Source of the DNA: Alphaproteobacteria bacterium
GTDB taxonomy: Bacteria > Pseudomonadota > Alphaproteobacteria > UBA828
Assembly: GCA_965214705.1 (NCBI GenBank)
Contig: OZ243972.1
Location: forward strand, 1,440,001-1,504,000
DNA: 64,000 bases
Direction: 5' to 3'
The notes beneath the pieces are model-generated. The model was given only the letters and a program-made list of their open reading frames with translations, ran no database searches and was not told the origin of the DNA. Below, piece by piece: positions 1,803 through 64,000 of the stretch. How positions within the stretch are numbered: the stretch's first letter is position 1; the number at the start of each line of letters is the position of its first letter. Made by a program: the position numbers and the translations under genes.

Positions 1803-2478
1803 TATCGATCTCCCTGGATCGCGACGGCGCGCCGCCGGACCGATCCGGCGACGGTCCGTCGCAGGGGTCGATGCTAACCACTGGTGATCGGGAGGCTGCT
1901 GGGGATCCGCCACCCGACGGGCGGAGCGCCACTGACGCAACCGGGAAGCGAACGCACAGAACAAACGGCACCCGCGACGCCTCGGAAATGAATGAACTCT
2001 ACGCCGCTAACTCCGCGTAGCGGCTTCGTTCAAATGCCCCGGCTGTCGCGACCCGCTTGCTCTCGCACGTCATGACACAACGGTGGCCCGCCCGCCTCGC
2101 CCTGTGCACCGCACCATCGTCAGGTGTGCACTTACAGTAGCGAATTCCTGGCGAGCGCACCGTGACGCAGGGTTGCAGCTTCCTCCTGCATTAGAGTTAT
2201 GCTACAGTGGGTTATGGACGATGTCAAGGGCAAATGGAGCGGGGCTGGAGGACACATTGGCTGATCTTGTGTCTCTAATTAGTTGCATTCAGGGAAGCCG
2301 GGATGTGGAGTTTTCCGTGGAGCGCTGGTACGGTCTTGACATCCAATCTGGCTCGCCATGTTAAGGACATAATAGAGACATAGGAGCGTGTCGGCGATGA
2401 ATACCATAGGAATATCATGACATATTCTACGTCATCATGCAGCTGCGTGTCGCAGTCTCCACAGGCCTTGCCGGACGG

Positions 2479-2850
2479 ATGGCCGCGATGAGGGAGGACG
2501 CCGGCGGACGCCGCCAGCGCGCGGTGATGGCGACCGATGCGGAGTGGGAGCGGCTCGGCCGGGCGGCGGCGGCGAGCGGCATGGACCTGTCGCGCTTCGT
2601 GATCCATCGCGCGCTGGACCGGGACCCTCTGCCGCCGGAGGTTCTGCGCCGGGCGGTGCGCGAGATGCTGGTGATGTCGAGGCTGGAGGAGAGGCGGCTG
2701 CGCGGGGCCGGCGCCGGCGAGGCCTGGGAGGACGCCTGCGACGCGGTGGACGAATGGATCGAGCGGGAGGGCACGCTGGACCGGCTGACCGATCCCGGCG
2801 CGGCGAACCGATGGAAGGCGGCGGGGCCGGCTGAGGAGGACGGGTCGTGA
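2479..2850 (+). CDS. Small ribbon-helix-helix/MobC-like protein
   Basis: AVMATDAEWERLGRAAAASGMDLSRFVIHRAL matches an RHH pattern. Start is uncertain (2437, 2479 or 2488). Confidence 0.55.
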   Translation: MAAMREDAGGRRQRAVMATDAEWERLGRAAAASGMDLSRFVIHRALDRDPLPPEVLRRAVREMLVMSRLEERRLRGAGAGEAWEDACDAVDEWIEREGTLDRLTDPGAANRWKAAGPAEEDGS

Positions 2851-3259
2851 CGGAGGAGGCGGTGCGGCCCGGCAGGCGTCAGCGGAGAAGACCGTGTCGC
2901 GCTATGTGCTGGAGCTCGCGCTCGCCTCGGTACTGGGCGAGGAGCGGGCGGGTATCGCTGCGGCCTCGGTCGCGGTCTCGACCGAGCCGTCGGCAGCGAA
3001 GCAAGCGGTCGCGCCTCAGGCCCGCGAGGGGGAGAGGGACCCCCATAAGCGCTAACTTGTTTGGTGGATCGATGTCACGCACCGTCGAATCCCCCTTGGA
3101 GCCACTCCGGGCGCCCGGCGAGAGGGCCAAAATTCCCGGATTCGTCCACCGAATCGCTCCATCGTTGCCAATTCCGGTTGTCGAAATGCGCAAAGACATG
3201 GCGCGAGCGAACAAGTTAGCGCCTATGAGAGGGACCCCCGCCAGGACCGGCTCTTCTGA
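2847..3259 (+). pseudogene. Degraded second RHH-like gene interrupted by a MITE
   Basis: GTGA overlap with the upstream gene and a frame change to SRYVLELALAS...EGERDP. Removing the MITE and one direct repeat restores ...ERDPRQDRLF*. Confidence 0.4.
3044..3227. mobile_element. MITE (~184 bp, non-coding)
   Basis: 18-bp TIRs CATAAGCGCTAACTTGTT (3044-3061) and AACAAGTTAGCGCCTATG (3210-3227), 1 mismatch. Flanked by direct repeat AGAGGGACCCC (3033-3043, 3228-3238). Confidence 0.8.
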
Positions 3260-3759
3260 GGCGCTCACCGTCTGCGCTGCCGGCATGAACGATGTGCGCG
3301 AGGTCGACCGAACGAGGAGAGGGATGGCGTGACAGCGGAAACAGAACATTTCGATGTGGCACGCCTGTCCGCCAATGTGGCCGATCATGTGTTGGCGTGA
3401 GCGTCTCGGCCACAGAGTGACATGCCATCGCGAACCTTCTATATTGGTCTCGGAGGCACAATGAAGTCAGCCAATTCGTTGAAAGGCTTATCCCGTTGAG
3501 CACGGCTTCTCAATATATGGGATACCGGATCGCCGCCATTCGGCGGGTAAGTACGTGAAACAAGGGAGGAACTGGGACCATGGCGAATGACTTTGCCGAC
3601 GCGGCCGGTACAGCATCTTGGGAAGCCGGAACCAAAGGGATAAGCCTTTTCGTTGAATACATCCGCTAGGCCATTCGCTGGCGCACGCTCACCGAGCGAT
3701 TCCGCGATAATAACCACCTAGAGCCGCTTCACCAGCGCAGTGAGGGCGATGCGCGTCCG

Positions 3760-5481
3760 ATGCAAGAAGAGCCGACACAACCTCCACAGGCCGCAGAAAA
3801 GATGCTGCCATCTTGTGAGCGAGCGGTGCGAAGCCCATGGGCGCGCGCCCGAGCGGCAGCCGTCAACCTCTCTCTGGTGCTTTCGTCGCTCTTGGTGTGC
3901 CTCGCCGCAGGGGAAGGGTATCTGCGGCTTTTTTATCCGAAGTACGAGTACGCCGCCGAGTCCCAATACGATCTCGATAGCCGGCGCATCTGGGTGCGGC
4001 AAGCGCATTCGGTATCGAGCCGGGCACATCCCGACACCGGCGTGAGTCACGCCGTTATCCACAATAACCTGGCCATGAGGCAGCATCGGAATTTCAGTGA
4101 CGGCGACATCGCAGGGGCCGTGAACCTAGGCTTTTTCGGCGACTCCTATACCGAAAACCTGCGCCTGCCCTCCCAATATTCGTTCAACGAAATATTGGAC
4201 TTTCTATTGAATTCCCCCCCCCCCCCCCCCCCCCCCCCCGCGAAACACAGGGATAGATTCAACGTCCTGAATCTCGGCGTGGACGGTTATGGCACCGACC
4301 AGTCGTTTCTCTATTACGAAGACTTCCGGTACTCGGCCGAACTGGACGTAGTGTTCTACGTATTCTGCAGTAACGATCTACGGGACATCTACGAGAAAAG
4401 GCTTTTTCGTCTAAACGAAACTGGCCAGTTGGCGCGGAACCCGGCCATCGAGCCTACACCCTGGGTTTCGCTGTTGTCCCGATTTCATATGACTTACCTC
4501 GTTCTTGATGCGGCGAGTCGACTGCCGCTGCTTACCGGGGCACTTGAAGACGTCGCCGGCAGGTTCTTCGAAGCGGGCGAGCGCATCGATGCCAAGTTGG
4601 CAGAAGAATGGGAGGGCAGACGCAACGGGGCCAAGGCAATGGCCCTGGAAGCCGACGTCAGCGATGGAACGCCGGACAGCGAACGCGCAAAGGACACCGG
4701 CGTCATCTTCCAATCCCTGCTTCGCGCCTGGCAACAAGCGGTGCAAGAGCGGGGCGGACGATTTGTTGTCGTCATCCTGCCGATTCCACGGGAAGACCGG
4801 ATGACCGCGCTGATTCCTTCAGAAATTGAAACTATGAACCTATTCGAGTGCTTCAACGAATACGACGCCGAATACGATTATTACAGAGATGTGCGGTTCG
4901 CGAACGACGGGCACTGGAACGAGCAGGGTAATATGCTCGCCGCCGTCTGCCTGTACAGGTTTCTCGAACGGAAAATGAACTTGTCTGTCCGCTCTGCCAA
5001 CGAACTTCTTGAGGAATTGTACAGATACTACTCAGCCTTTCAGGCGTGGATGCCTACCGAAGAGTGGACAAGGCCGACTTCGGTGCATCCACAAGATTTG
5101 GTTGCTATTCGAAGCAAGTATTTGGCGGAAGGGCTATCGCGACGCGGCAGGTTGATTGTCCGCTCTACCTTCGACCTGTACCTCGACGGACGTCACCTGA
5201 CCTATGCCAAGGCGCCTTGCGTCCCGGCGGACACCGAGGCGAAGTTTTTTTTGCACGTCTATCCTGCGGACACGAATGACCTGCCCCGTACCCGGCAGCA
5301 GCACGGTTTTGACAACCTGGATTTTAGCATCGATTCCACAGACGCGAAGTTTGACGAATCGTGCCTCACGACTGTCCGGCTTCCGCAGTACGGCATCGCC
5401 CGCGTCCATACCGGTCAATTCGTTGCCGAAACGGGACGGATTTGGCAGGAAGAGTTTACGTTCGGGGCTGACCCGACGTAG
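3760..5481 (+). CDS. Membrane-anchored SGNH/GDSL hydrolase-like protein with an extra C-terminal domain
   Basis: N-terminal TM helix; SGNH blocks FFGDSYT, NLGVDGYGTDQ, FCSND and NDGHWN. Confidence 0.8.
   Translation: MQEEPTQPPQAAEKMLPSCERAVRSPWARARAAAVNLSLVLSSLLVCLAAGEGYLRLFYPKYEYAAESQYDLDSRRIWVRQAHSVSSRAHPDTGVSHAVIHNNLAMRQHRNFSDGDIAGAVNLGFFGDSYTENLRLPSQYSFNEILDFLLNSPPPPPPPPAKHRDRFNVLNLGVDGYGTDQSFLYYEDFRYSAELDVVFYVFCSNDLRDIYEKRLFRLNETGQLARNPAIEPTPWVSLLSRFHMTYLVLDAASRLPLLTGALEDVAGRFFEAGERIDAKLAEEWEGRRNGAKAMALEADVSDGTPDSERAKDTGVIFQSLLRAWQQAVQERGGRFVVVILPIPREDRMTALIPSEIETMNLFECFNEYDAEYDYYRDVRFANDGHWNEQGNMLAAVCLYRFLERKMNLSVRSANELLEELYRYYSAFQAWMPTEEWTRPTSVHPQDLVAIRSKYLAEGLSRRGRLIVRSTFDLYLDGRHLTYAKAPCVPADTEAKFFLHVYPADTNDLPRTRQQHGFDNLDFSIDSTDAKFDESCLTTVRLPQYGIARVHTGQFVAETGRIWQEEFTFGADPT
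4214..4239 (+). repeat. 26-nt poly-C tract inside the SGNH gene (encodes poly-Pro)
   Basis: Directly visible; the reading frame is currently maintained. Confidence 0.9.
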
Positions 5482-5527
5482 GACACGAGATCAGGAGTTA
5501 TCGTATGGCTTCAAAGAGTCCTACACC

Positions 5528-5908
5528 ATGAATTCAAATCGCGCCTTCGGCTTCGTCTTCGTCATCGCGTTCGGCGCGATCGCGCTATTTCCGCTGACCG
5601 GTGGCGAGCCACCGCGCTTCTGGGCGCTCGCCGCCATGGCGCTCGTGCTGGCTGCGGCGCTGATCACGCCGGATTGGCTGACACCGTTTAATCGCGCGTG
5701 GCTCCATGTCGGCCAATTCCTGCACCGCATCACCAGCCCACTGGTGATCGCGGTGATCTACTTCGCTGTGGTAACGCCGACCGGCCTCGTCATGCGCGCA
5801 TTGGGCAGGGATCCGTTACGACTGCGCCGCGACCCGCACGCGCCAAGCTACTGGATTCGACGCGATCCCCCCGGGCCCGATCCAGAAACGATGACGAACC
5901 AGTTCTGA
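5528..5908 (+). CDS. SxtJ-family membrane protein
   Basis: SNRAFGFVF...PFNRAW..VG..L..ITSP...YFAVVTP.GLVMR.LGRDPLR...SYWIRR...MTNQF signature. Confidence 0.88.
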   Translation: MNSNRAFGFVFVIAFGAIALFPLTGGEPPRFWALAAMALVLAAALITPDWLTPFNRAWLHVGQFLHRITSPLVIAVIYFAVVTPTGLVMRALGRDPLRLRRDPHAPSYWIRRDPPGPDPETMTNQF

Positions 5909-60356: not shown

Positions 60357-61613
60357 TTAGTCCGATTGACGCACAGCGGGAAGTGTCACCGTCATCTCGG
60401 CGTACTCGCGTGGTACGGATTCGGAGGTGATCGTTCCTCCGTGTCCGCGAACGATATCGTGAGAGAGGCTCATTCCCAGTCCGGTTCCCTGATCGGCTGC
60501 CTTGGTGCTGAAGAACGGCGTAAACATCTTCGCCATCACGTCCGGGGTCATGCCGATTCCGTTGTCCCGAATGCTGATCTCGACGGCGTCATCCGTCCGC
60601 GCGGTCTTCAGGCGCAGGGCGGGCGCGAAGCCTTCGCCCTGCTTTCTCTTCTCCTCGATCGCCTGGCAGGCATTGCTCACCAAGTTGATGAAAACCCGCC
60701 CTAGGTCCTCAGGCACGGCGCTGATGTCGCCCGCGTCCGGGTCGAGCTCCTTCTGGATCTTCATGTTGAAGCCCGGGTTCTGGGCACGGACGGCGTGGAA
60801 GGCCAGCATGGTCTACTCGACTAGCAGTTGGTTGATATCCACCGGTCGGAATTCTCGCTGACCGTCGCCGCGCCTGAAGTCCAGCATGTCGGTCACGATG
60901 CGATTGGCACGCCCGCTGTGGTGGGTGATGCGGGTCATGTTTTCGGTCAGGTCGGCGGCGAGATCCGCAACTTCCGCCTGGATTTCCTCGCTGTTCAGCT
61001 TGTCAGTCTTGCCGGAGATCTCGGCCAGTTCTTCTACAATCATTACAGACGACTCAGCGAAGTTCTTGATGAATTGAAGTGGGTTGCGAATCTCGTGTGC
61101 GACCCCGGCCGACACCTCTCCCAGTTCGGCCAGCTTTTGCTGGCTGATGATCTGGTCCTGTGTCGTCCTGAGCTGATCCAGCGTGGACTTCAGGGTCTCG
61201 TTGCCCTTTCGAAGCTCCTCCGATAGTTCCTTCTGCGCGGTCTCGAGCTGCCGCGATCGGATTAATGCTTGGCGCAGCGCTTCGAGGACTCGCCCATACA
61301 TCGAAATTTCGTCGCTGCCGGGCGTGTCTACGTGGAAATCCAGATCACCGGCGACCACCGCTTCACCCACTGTTGGAGAAACAATCCCCGTACCTGGATG
61401 ACGGCCTGCAGGAGCGTGTGAGCGAGATCGATGACCAGTGCCGCGAGCGCGAGCGCCAGCAGCGTCGTGCTGCCGTAAAAGCCCGCGTAAACGGACAGCG
61501 CGATTAGCAAGCCGGATCGGCCCACGAGGAAGAAGACACTCTTTCCGCTGTAGGTGCGAAGGCTCAGCATGTTGGGCCATGCACGCGCTCACGACCGAAA
61601 ACATCTTGCAATC
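60357..61613 (-). pseudogene. HAMP-domain sensor histidine kinase, inactivated
   Basis: AGVAHEIRNPL (H box), FINLVSNA, DNGIG, PFFSTK, GTGLG. In-frame TAG at 60813-60815, a frameshift between the TM and HAMP parts, and an IS66 directly upstream. Confidence 0.85.
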
Positions 61614-61633
61614 GTAAGAGGGGCAAATCCTGG

Positions 61634-61925
61634 GAGCGCCAGCCTAACTTTGTCGTGGACAGCCGGTGAAAGTCCGGTGAAGGGAAGGACTGACGCCCCA
61701 TCCTTGCCTTGAGCCGTGCGTCGGCCTTCGCGAGGAGGCAGGCGAAGCGTCGGTAGAGGTGCGCGTGGGCAGGACATCGAGCACCGAAAATGCCGTCATT
61801 CGGAGTGCCGAGGCCATCCAGAAGGTCGAAGGCAACACCGGCCGCCCGTTTTCGTGAGGGCGGCGGGGCTCCGCGGTGTCCGAGACCCCAGGCACGCGCG
61901 TACGTCCACACAGGGGACCTGGTGA
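61634..61925 (+). ncRNA. Group II intron domain I-like structured RNA in the IS66 5' leader
   Basis: Ordered motifs GAGCGCCAG (cf. GUGCG 5' end), CCGG-TGAAAGT-CCGG, GAAGGAC, GAGCCGTGCG...CGCGAGG...GAAGCGT, TCGAGCACCGAAA, GTGCCGAGG...GAAGGCAACAC, CGCGGTGTCCGAGACCCC and GGGACCTGG. Confidence 0.7.
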
Positions 61926-62169
61926 GCGCGCGCAGCTGGTGTGATGTCGCTTGGGGGTCCCTGTTACGCCCGGCGCTGACGGTAGTCCTTGGTGATAGGC
62001 ATCGGGCCACCTTCGGCGTTTCCTGGCCATCGCGCTTCCAGTTCCGGGTGCAGCGGCCATGGGCCCGGCCATGTGACGCGACCGCGTTGCCGATCCGGAT
62101 CAGGGGGTTGAGCGCGCATTTTTCGCTGGACTTCGCGCGCTTTACGGACAGCCTGCGCGCGGAGGGTCC

Positions 62170-63837
62170 ATGGTCGATTCGCTTCAAACCCAAGCTCGGT
62201 TGATCGAGGAACTGCGGGCGACGAACGCCGCGCAGGCGGAAACGATCCTTGAGTTGCGTGCCGAGAACGAGCGTCTCAAGGAGACGGTCGCAGTGCACAC
62301 CGAGACAATCGAGATGCTCAAGGCCGAGATCCGCCAACTCAAGAGGTTGCCCGGCAAGCCGGATATCAAACCGGGCGCGGGCGACGGAGACGGCAAGGGC
62401 TCGGGCGGCAAGGGCCTGGAGGGAGGCCGGCGCTCTTCGGGCGCCTCGAAGAAGCGGCGAGGCCCCAAGCAGGGCCGCAAGGACGCGAAGCGCGTGGTCG
62501 TCTGCGTAGAGGACGCGCCCGAGGGCTCGGTCCACAAAGATTACCAGGACTATCACGCCCAACTGCTGGAACTCGAAGTCCACAACGTCGTCTTTCAGCG
62601 CGAGCGCGTGGTGACGCCGGATGGGCGCATCATCGTCGCTGAGCTGCCCGACGGCGTGATCGGCGGCTTCAACCTTGAGCTGCATCGCTTCGTGCTGATG
62701 CTCTACCACCAGGGCCAGAGCACGATCCCGCGCATCACTGCCCTGCTCGATGGGATCGGCCTCGACATCTCGGAGCGTCAGGTGCGGCGCCTGCTGACCG
62801 GGAACAGGGAACCGTTCGTCGGCGAGGCGGCGGAGATACTGAAGGCGGGTCTTGAAGGGGCGGCCTGGATCTCGGTCGACGACACTGGCGCGCGCCATCA
62901 AGGGCGCAACGGCTATTGCATCTCGATCGGCAACGATTGCTTCGGCTGGTTCGGAACGACGGGGTCGAAGAGCCGGCTGAGCTTCCTCGACACGATGTGC
63001 GGCGCCCTCGACGAGTACGTGCTGAACGATGAAGCGTTCCGGCACATGGAGAGCCACAGCATGCCGCGTCGGGCGCTTGACGCGTTGAGGGGGCATGCCG
63101 GTGGTCGGTTTGACGGGCCTGACCTGTGGATGGCGTTCCTCGACGGGCTCGGGATCGACGCCCCCAGGGCCCGGCTCCTCGCCACCGAGGGCGCCCGGCT
63201 CGGCTGTCTGTTCGCCCATGGCCTGCTGCGCGAGGACAGCGCCATCCTGAGCGACGACGCCGGCCAGTTCGACCTCGGCCTGCACCAGTTCCTGTGCTGG
63301 ATCCATGCCGAGAGGCTCTATCGCACGTTGCCGGTCTGGAGCGACGCCAGCCGTGCGGCCGTCGATGAGGTGCGCGGCGGCATCTGGCGGACGTACCGGC
63401 TGCTTGGCGCCTATTGCCGCCAGCCAAGTCCGCGCAGACGCGCCGTCGTCGAGCGCAGCTTCGCGCGCACCTTCCGGACCGGCACCGGCTACCGCCTGCT
63501 CGACGAGCAGATCGGGCGCACCCTAGCCAACCGCGACAAGCTGCTCGCCGTGCTCGACCGTCCCGACGTGCCGGCCCACACCAACGGTACCGAGAACGAC
63601 CTTCGCGTCTGTGTCGTCCGCCGCAAGGTCTCGGGCGGAACCCGCTCGGATAAAGGCCGTGCCTGCCGCGACGCCTTCCTCACCCACATGAAGACCTGTG
63701 CCCGCCACGGCATCTCATTCTGGAACTACCTCGGTGACCGCCTGGGCATCCCAGGTGCCGAAAGTGTCCCCTGGCTCCCCGACCTCGCGCGCCAGCGACC
63801 GACCGCTGGTCCAGTGCTCGCTCCGCAGGCCATCTGA
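62170..63837 (+). CDS. IS66-family transposase (TnpC-like, no TnpA/TnpB)
   Basis: N-terminal coiled coil, ISVDDTGARH, ILSDDAGQF, LCWIHAER, HTNGTENDLR..V.RRKVSGGTRS; GGAGG RBS. Confidence 0.92.
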   Translation: MVDSLQTQARLIEELRATNAAQAETILELRAENERLKETVAVHTETIEMLKAEIRQLKRLPGKPDIKPGAGDGDGKGSGGKGLEGGRRSSGASKKRRGPKQGRKDAKRVVVCVEDAPEGSVHKDYQDYHAQLLELEVHNVVFQRERVVTPDGRIIVAELPDGVIGGFNLELHRFVLMLYHQGQSTIPRITALLDGIGLDISERQVRRLLTGNREPFVGEAAEILKAGLEGAAWISVDDTGARHQGRNGYCISIGNDCFGWFGTTGSKSRLSFLDTMCGALDEYVLNDEAFRHMESHSMPRRALDALRGHAGGRFDGPDLWMAFLDGLGIDAPRARLLATEGARLGCLFAHGLLREDSAILSDDAGQFDLGLHQFLCWIHAERLYRTLPVWSDASRAAVDEVRGGIWRTYRLLGAYCRQPSPRRRAVVERSFARTFRTGTGYRLLDEQIGRTLANRDKLLAVLDRPDVPAHTNGTENDLRVCVVRRKVSGGTRSDKGRACRDAFLTHMKTCARHGISFWNYLGDRLGIPGAESVPWLPDLARQRPTAGPVLAPQAI

Positions 63838-64000
63838 GGTCCTGCCCAAACCGGACCTCAAAGCCGGAATCACGCCGCTTCATCCCAGGATTTGCCCCTC
63901 TTACTTGCAATCTCCCCCTTTATCCAAATTCGGAATGCCACCACCTCCGGCCGGTTGAGTTCAGTTCTGGGTATCAACAACCAAAAGGAGTCATCGACCG

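Follow-up and report, generated by a model that had tools for sequence, protein, structure and literature searches.

An IS66-family element with a truncated group II intron in its leader: probable scar of homing into the terminal inverted repeats

An IS66-family element with a domain I sequence in its leader

The stretch of DNA considered here, hereafter called the window, comprises 64,000 nucleotides (nt) of contig OZ243972.1 (positions 1,440,001 to 1,504,000) in the alphaproteobacterial assembly GCA_965214705.1. It contains, at positions 61614-63904, an insertion sequence (IS) of the IS66 family in which domain I of a group II intron is located between the left terminal inverted repeat (TIR) and the leader of the transposase gene. 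This text deals with the origin of that domain I sequence. The element is bounded by perfect 22-nt TIRs and flanked by a target-site duplication (TSD) of 8 bp. The left TIR, GTAAGAGGGGCAAATCCTGGGA, occupies 61614-61635 on the plus strand and is 100% complementary to the right TIR at 63883-63904 on the minus strand; the octamer TTGCAATC is found at 61606-61613 and, in identical form, at 63905-63912. Typical hallmarks of the IS66 family are TIRs starting with GTAAG and an 8-bp TSD, both of which are present here.

The element encodes its transposase in a single open reading frame (ORF) at 62170-63837 on the plus strand, which specifies a DDE transposase of 555 amino acids (aa) and is uninterrupted by stop codons. 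The protein matches the Pfam profile DDE_Tnp_IS66 (PF03050) with 41.5 bits (cutoff 23.1), the match being confined to the C-terminal half of the profile (positions 147-281), and the NCBIfam IS66 model NF033517 with 81.5 bits, which is under the cutoff of 180. Judged by these profile matches, the transposase is a member of the IS66 family at family level, but a divergent one. It differs by at most 3 aa among three copies in the genome. A sequence-only reading of this DNA, made without database searches, had described an intact element of the IS66 family, whose transposase is intact and which has perfect TIRs of 22 bp and a TSD of 8 bp, and had pointed to an unusually long leader of ~535 nt lacking tnpA and tnpB. 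This description holds. The leader spans 61636-62169 (~534 nt), and neither of its ORFs, at 61716-61922 and 61790-62200, has a Pfam match, so that no tnpA or tnpB was found. As these accessory genes are absent and there is no room for them beside the intron remnant, the element points to the single-ORF subgroup of the IS66 family, which we take to be the one named ISBst12-like in ISfinder.

The intron remnant lies at 61634-61922 on the plus strand. It corresponds to intron positions 1-290, i.e., to a complete domain I (D1), and is 95.86% identical to full copies of the intron, with 12 differences (blast and alignment). The Rfam covariance model RF02005 (group-II-D1D4-6) matches 61669-61888 on the plus strand over the full model (positions 1-225), with 155.4 bits and an E value of 4.7e-46, which is far beyond chance. 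For RF00029, the model of domains V and VI (D5 and D6), no match is obtained in 61000-64000, even at E ≤ 10. A domain I-like RNA starting from the inner edge of the left TIR, and the lack of D5, D6 and a reverse transcriptase (RT) within the element, had been put forward in the sequence-only reading, with covariance models proposed as a check, and are borne out by these results.

The intron-like sequence starts with GAGCG at 61634 and overlaps the final two bases of the TIR, GA, which are common to the TIR and the 5′ end of the intron. Bases 1-20 of the left TIR form the 5′ exon of an intron homing site, with GGCA and TCCTGG as the intron-binding sites IBS2 and IBS1, respectively. At the other side, homology of the leader to the full intron ends at position 290. 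The native leader of the IS follows at 61923-62169 (plus strand), and homology to intron-free relatives resumes at about 61935. A promoter and terminator scan of 61500-62300 returned nothing on either strand, and hence no sigma-70-like promoter that could bring D1 into the mRNA; for a high-GC organism this result is uninformative.

The 671-nt intron and its sites in the inverted repeats

The window element was queried against its own genome, which measures 7.92 Mb and consists of three contigs. Two more full-length copies of the IS were retrieved over query positions 1-2271, namely L002 (G000:C1:2635785-2638746) and L003 (C1:421541-424505), as well as a 95% variant, L004 (G000:C1:1859825-1863187), and a 5′-truncated copy, L005. 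Additional matches, restricted to query positions 1-309, are located in inverted orientation just past the right ends of L002 and L003. According to blast against the genome, a 671-nt element, GAGCGCCAGG...CCCTACCGCGAA, is present in five copies, with 100% identity along their entire length. Its positions 1-290 alone are found in three copies with 94-96% identity, one each at the left end of the window copy, of L002 and of L003. The full 671-nt intron is matched by RF02005 with 168.1 bits. It additionally has a full-model match to RF00029 (D5-D6) of 32.8 bits (E value 1.8e-4; the gathering score, 40, is not reached), which ends exactly at the mapped 3′ end, and a D6 in which an A is bulged seven nt before the end, as seen by eye. 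Since 671 nt is too short to encode an RT, the intron is ORF-less.

Four of the five full copies directly follow the first 20 nt of a TIR (...GGGGCAAAT(C/T)(C/T)TGG) of a window-type IS. One is present at the right end of L002, between GTAAGAGGGGCAAATCCTGG and GATGAAG, and one at the right end of L003, between ...AAATCTTGG and GATGAAG. Two others are arranged head to tail at the left end of L004, between ...GTAAGTGGGGCAAATTCTGG and GGACGG. The fifth copy occupies a look-alike site in an IS91-family transposase gene, between ...GGGGCAGAATCTGG and GACAGC; the intron lies on the sense strand, with Zn_Tnp_IS91 matched by the upstream exon and Y2_Tnp by the downstream one. An uninterrupted site is displayed by the right ends that are empty, namely those of the window copy, L004 and L005, and reads ...CCTGG↓GATGAAG (inward in the right TIR of the window copy, with the arrow at the insertion point). 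The sites of the five full copies share GGGGCA..(A)T(C/T)(C/T)TGG↓G. As an alternative, the sequence-only reading had mentioned an old intron insertion that was later truncated, and this alternative is supported by the presence of a 671-nt parent intron in the same genome, at the same TIR site.

The 5′ end of the intron could be fixed at GAGCG because of the tandem pair and because of the alignment to sister families starting with GTGCG. Every independent site has a G as the first base of the 3′ exon, and the intron likewise starts with a G, a match that explains the head-to-tail tandem. The target of the intron, GGGGCA-A-AT-YYTGG↓G, coincides with the inner part of the TIRs of the IS; being present within both TIRs, it provides each IS with two inward-pointing homing sites. 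The tandem-bearing copy L004 has no TSD (ctttaacg versus gctccaag), which suggests rearrangement or recombination between copies. In a survey of 21 genomes of the genus, the TIR was found nine times in the source genome, where six ends are occupied, and three times in two other genomes, where none is occupied; the end in genome G012 was counted as empty from a continuous match. Metagenome contigs were scanned for the bare TIR as well as its junction with the intron, and neither gave a match.

The source genome has at least five families (A-E) of RF02005-type introns, which enabled the identification of the exon-binding sites (EBS) of the 671-nt intron, family A. In all five families, the hairpin loop following a conserved GCCGAG (intron positions ~183-192) forms six contiguous Watson-Crick or G-U pairs with the end of its own 5′ exon. 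The loop and exon sequences are CCAGAA and TTCTGG in family A, CTCATC and GATGAG in family B, CAGATT and AGTCTG in family C, TTCGTT and AGCGGA in family D, and TGAGCA and TGCTCA in family E. Non-cognate combinations mostly pair less, with a few exceptions that result from G-U tolerance. The cognate pairing in five out of five families identifies this loop as EBS1, and the comparison between families thereby shows its pairing with the TIR. In the window, EBS1 CCAGAA is present in the hairpin loop at 61818-61823 (plus strand), and pairs with TTCTGG, or with one mismatch with TCCTGG, at the end of the TIR. TTCTGG, the best partner of family A, occurs in the TIR of L004 and in those of intron-free relatives from other genomes; the window copy has TCCTGG. 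The comparison of EBS-like loops with target flanks, which had been proposed from the sequence alone, is thus answered by the complementarity between EBS1 CCAGAA and TTCTGG of the TIR.

EBS2 is probably UGCC (intron positions 158-161; 61791-61794, plus strand), an assignment based on only 4 bp. It is located in an internal loop after CGAAAA and is complementary to GGCA at positions -12 to -9 of the TIR. The homologous loop pairs with the 5′ exon between positions -8 and -14 in family A, at site B1 (4 bp) and in family C (7 bp), and does not pair in family D or at site B2; family E was unscored. Other candidates were rejected. CCAGG at intron positions 256-260 was dismissed as EBS1 because in each of the five families it is the hairpin at ~183-190 that covaries with the 5′ exon, CCAGG at positions 6-10 because these positions form the closing helix of D1, and UGCCUC at positions 310-315 was dismissed as EBS2 on account of its location outside domain I.

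The closing helix (positions 6-10/286-290) covaries as well, being CCAGG/CCUGG in four families and CCGAG/CUCGG in family B, and therefore the remnant consists of the whole of domain I and nothing more. One could imagine that such a D1, complete and alone, works together with a D2-D6 RNA from elsewhere, as in a split, trans-splicing intron. We give next to no credence to this possibility. Every genome match to intron positions 291-671 falls either in a full copy or in D5-D6 of another full-length intron, no orphan D2-D6 having been seen, and the downstream 'exon' would be a non-coding IS leader that misses ~20 nt.

Truncation and spread of the domain I remnant

Altogether, the leader very probably carries the scar of a truncated group II intron that homes to the TIRs of this IS, and not a purpose-built regulatory RNA. 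The usual homing of an intron and a subsequent 3′ truncation would account for its group II sequence. The 671-nt ORF-less intron (D1D4-6 type, with GAGCG at its 5′ end, a D5, and a D6 with bulged A) would retrohome, presumably with the help of an RT/maturase in trans. Insertion at the left TIR would have been the first step. A later deletion would have left exactly domain I, and the IS, of which the terminal 22 bp are intact, would then have copied itself along with a scar that may well be neutral.

Compared to L004 and intron-free relatives, ~18-23 nt of the IS leader beside the insertion site are missing or unalignable. A single deletion may thus have taken intron positions 291-671 together with ~20 nt of the leader. 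Abortive target-primed reverse transcription yields copies that are truncated at the 5′ end, not at the 3′ end, and the scar would therefore be a deletion that occurred after insertion. CTGG microhomology was considered as its cause; a fitting repeat was sought and was not found.

The identical truncation is present in three IS copies, i.e., the window copy, L002 and L003, which each have an 8-bp TSD of their own (ttgcaatc, gagagatg and agtagttg). Over 2271 nt, L002 shows no difference from the window copy; L003 differs at 34 positions. Moreover, contigs of four other public sequencing runs, from four studies, bridge the junction between D1 and the leader. The left flanks in runs X2, X3 and X6 are absent from this genome (X3 and X6 share one), and run X8 shows the flank of L003. 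The full intron, continuing beyond position 290, is found in three runs. As the terminal 22 bp are intact, the IS could still transpose; the different flanks indicate that the scarred IS still does so and has been mobile recently. This implies that 20-22 bp of the IS end are sufficient for transposition when followed by 290 nt of a foreign RNA gene.

In L002 and L003, the scar at the left and the full intron at the right lengthen the inverted repeats from 22 bp to ~310 bp, with ~96% identity, and an inversion of the IS interior could make use of them. A function has to be considered here as well, in which the scar lowers further intron insertion at the transposase-proximal end, or in which the ~310-bp inverted repeats change recombination. 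None of the three scarred left ends has gained a second intron, against two out of three right ends of the same copies that have a full intron, and the left scar and right intron of L002 and L003 do constitute 290-bp inverted repeats of ~96% identity. These numbers are tiny, however, and the occupied 5′ junction (CTGG↓GAG) still mimics the target and was re-used in the L004 tandem, so that insertion is not blocked in principle. Such an effect of occupancy is therefore regarded as very improbable.

More weight was given in the sequence-only reading to a leader that had been domesticated by the transposon as a regulatory, guide-like or decoy RNA, and a lack of the leader in homologous elements had been named there as an outcome speaking against it. 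When the related loci were scanned, none of the eight had a match to any Rfam family at the gathering score, and hence none had a group II hit. These eight are L039-L045 and L021, of which L021 is the same place as L039; L046, a fragment of 32 residues, was left out. The closest homolog, from genome G004 of the same genus, is 87% identical at the nt level, and has uninterrupted TIRs (GTAAGTGGGGCAAATTCTGG↓GGGCGCC), its own TSD TGGCCATG and an intron-free leader of 289 nt. Conservation of the leader in homologous elements, which the domestication proposal expects, is thus not seen. A class-wide protein search at E ≤ 1e-20 gave matches in 5 of 401 genomes, including the source genome. The transposase lineage thus appears rare and divergent, and the test of leader conservation rests on few, mostly close relatives. 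In the intron-free relatives (L021 1404-1440 / L039 2212-2250, the left end of the G004 homolog), the sequence after the homing site, GGGCGCCCAGGCTGGCC, matches the 5′ end of the intron, GAGCGCCAGGCTAACT, at 12 of 16 positions, as counted by eye. This likeness could be due to chance, could be a vestige of a still older insertion, or could be mimicry favouring tandem insertion.

Divergence between the window copy and L003 amounts to 7 of 289 positions in D1 (2.4%), 9 of 247 in the native leader (3.6%) and 17 of 1668 in the ORF (1.0%, with 3 aa changes). With such small counts, the comparison weakly suggests that the remnant diverges like other non-coding DNA, with no sign of extra constraint.

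In its general form, domestication means that the D1 RNA serves the IS, either as a 5′ untranslated region that tunes transposase translation or stability, as a maturase decoy, or as an EBS-bearing RNA that pairs with the TIR of its own element. We consider this unlikely, even though the remnant is exactly one complete folding domain with a high covariance-model score, retains an EBS1 and an EBS2, both complementary to the TIR of the element itself, and has gone along with no fewer than two additional transpositions in the genome, with other left flanks in other runs. That some persistent intron fragments, FRE652 among them, may act as cis elements has been put forward by Toro and colleagues (PMC5894124). 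Against this stand the absence of D1 from all eight homologous IS loci, including the 87%-identical homolog from the same genus, the higher divergence between copies of the remnant (2.4%) than of the ORF (1.0%), and the substitution G10C, one of the 12 differences in the remnant, which breaks the closing helix of D1. In addition, homing plus deletion offers a full explanation of the leader, and a live intron is present at the same site of sister copies.

A narrower variant states that the remnant, within the 5′ untranslated region of the transposase or as an RNA of its own, keeps EBS1, EBS2 and perhaps maturase contacts and was co-opted as an anti-parasite or regulatory RNA, which titrates the ribonucleoprotein or the protein of the intron or masks the TIR, thereby shielding the transposase-proximal end or tuning transposition. 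If true, the transposon would have co-opted a piece of its own parasite. The sole hints in this direction are that the deletion stops right at the domain boundary and that the scarred form has spread across samples, and the idea is judged distinctly unlikely.

A number of observations weigh against the interpretation of the leader as a mere homing scar. The deletion ends within ~3 nt of the end of domain I, which a random deletion would rarely do, and the mechanism is unexplained. The remnant is not visibly decayed, as it scores 155 bits and keeps EBS1 and EBS2 intact. In this genome, no full-length left end of the window IS lineage other than the scarred form was seen, and this form recurs in four other runs, so that some benefit of the scarred form is possible. 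The divergence comparison is a weak one, of 7 versus 9 versus 17 substitutions between two copies. Lastly, no full-length parent in the genome is closer to family A than ~72% in D1.

Candidate helper reverse transcriptases and comparison with known systems

If the scar derives from homing of the ORF-less intron, the proteins needed would have to be provided by other introns. Related full-length introns in the source genome encode proteins with RVT_1 and GIIM domains, in which no endonuclease domain was detected, and one full-length family shares 91.6% identity with family A over D5-D6. It is plausible that the ORF-less intron is mobilised in trans by the RT/maturase of these relatives. Partial cross-complementation between related introns was shown experimentally for the RmInt1 group (PMC4615759). 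The C-terminal motif of class D, as given in the same paper, is absent from all six RT ORFs that were checked.

The full-length RF02005-type introns have an additional peculiarity, in that they each contain two consecutive RT ORFs. This is the case at L055 (G000:C3:92254-96388; ORFs at 1115-2425 and 2422-3963), L056 and L057 (ORFs at 3021-4112 and 4109-5650). The first ORF of the pair encodes ~436 aa (RVT_1 and GIIM) and the second one ~513 aa, with RVT_1 and sometimes also GIIM. One and the same 436-aa ORF is found in different intron families, and Rfam recognises the outer D1 only. This arrangement looks like an intron that is nested in the ORF region of another one, by way of a twintron or of intron-in-intron homing. 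At the family E locus L059 (G000:C1:2612624-2616800), a DDE_Tnp_1/DUF772 transposase ORF (518-1513) is located between D1 and the RT ORF, and here an IS is nested in an intron.

Precedents exist for TIR homing, for the tandem and for a 3′-truncated remnant alike. All genomic copies of the group II intron RmInt2 in Sinorhizobium meliloti GR4 are described as lying inside the ISRm17 inverted repeats, with each IS offering two sites, one per strand (Martinez-Rodriguez et al. 2014, PMC4615759). Its head-to-tail double insertion is ascribed to the first base of the intron, which fits EBS3 and mimics the 3′ exon (PMC4615759). Both RmInt2 and the present intron reside in the inverted repeats of an IS and form head-to-tail tandems, and both have a relaxed target specificity, with EBS2/IBS2 pairing over 4 bp. 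The RmInt2 proteins are likewise described as lacking an endonuclease domain, and here only RVT_1 and GIIM were detected. RmInt2, however, encodes its own class D protein, while the 671-nt intron is ORF-less and would depend on mobilisation in trans. The host differs too, since the IS66-family element with its GTAAG...GGGGCAAAT TIR is unlike ISRm17 as described. On plasmid pRmeGR4b of S. meliloti GR4 (NC_019847.2), a homolog with 41% aa identity, L061, has perfect 23-bp TIRs, GTACGTGGGGCAAATCGGGTGGC, at 3292-3314 and 5508-5530, which share the core GGGGCAAATC with the window TIR. L061 adjoins a retron Ec67-type RT gene. Whether or not it corresponds to ISRm17, no intron is adjacent to it on the plasmid.

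The present pair would be the second clean example of a group II intron that uses the terminal repeats of an IS as paired homing sites, in another IS family and another bacterial lineage. What is added to the precedent is an ORF-less intron that was recently active (five identical copies), a natural tandem, and an IS that is still competent for transposition with a dead domain I separating its TIR from its leader. Short ORF-less group II introns of bacteria and archaea are reportedly mobilised in trans. Like the present intron, they are said to lack an RT ORF and to occur in several identical copies beside RT-encoding relatives. To our knowledge, homing into the terminal repeats of an IS is not among the patterns described for such introns.

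The loss of 3′ sequences is known from introns of the RmInt1 type, which are reported to decay by loss of their 3′ terminus (Toro et al. 2014, PMC4181065). The fragment FRE652, which consists of DI-DIII and part of DIV, is intergenic, and a cis-regulatory role was speculated for it, though not proven (Toro et al. 2018, PMC5894124). As in these fragments, the 3′ part of the present remnant is lost and 5′ ribozyme domains persist in the genome. FRE652 is larger and intergenic, whereas the present remnant comprises DI only and is found inside a transposing IS. Another system in which a ribozyme sequence and a DNA transposon are combined in one mobile unit is that of the IStrons, consisting of a group I intron and IS605/IS607 (PMC4227781). 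The intron of an IStron is described as complete, self-splicing, integral and conserved, and makes insertions harmless. In contrast, the ribozyme sequence of the window element is a catalytically dead fragment that relatives lack, and movement of the intact intron does not depend on the IS. Compared to these precedents, the ORF-less nature of the intron, the IS66-type single-ORF host and the remnant riding in a still-transposing IS are different. A literature search of limited scope retrieved no description of this intron/IS66 pair.

More generally, the case illustrates how nested mobile elements can hitch-hike on one another. For annotation, it means that RF02005 hits directly inside GTAAG...GGGGCAAAT repeats are to be read as intron insertions or scars.

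A last observation concerns the insertion site of the window element, which lies a few bases upstream of the start of a pair of minus-strand ORFs (60357-61604). Their translation resembles a sensor histidine kinase, as judged by eye only, and the insertion may affect the promoter of this putative histidine kinase gene.

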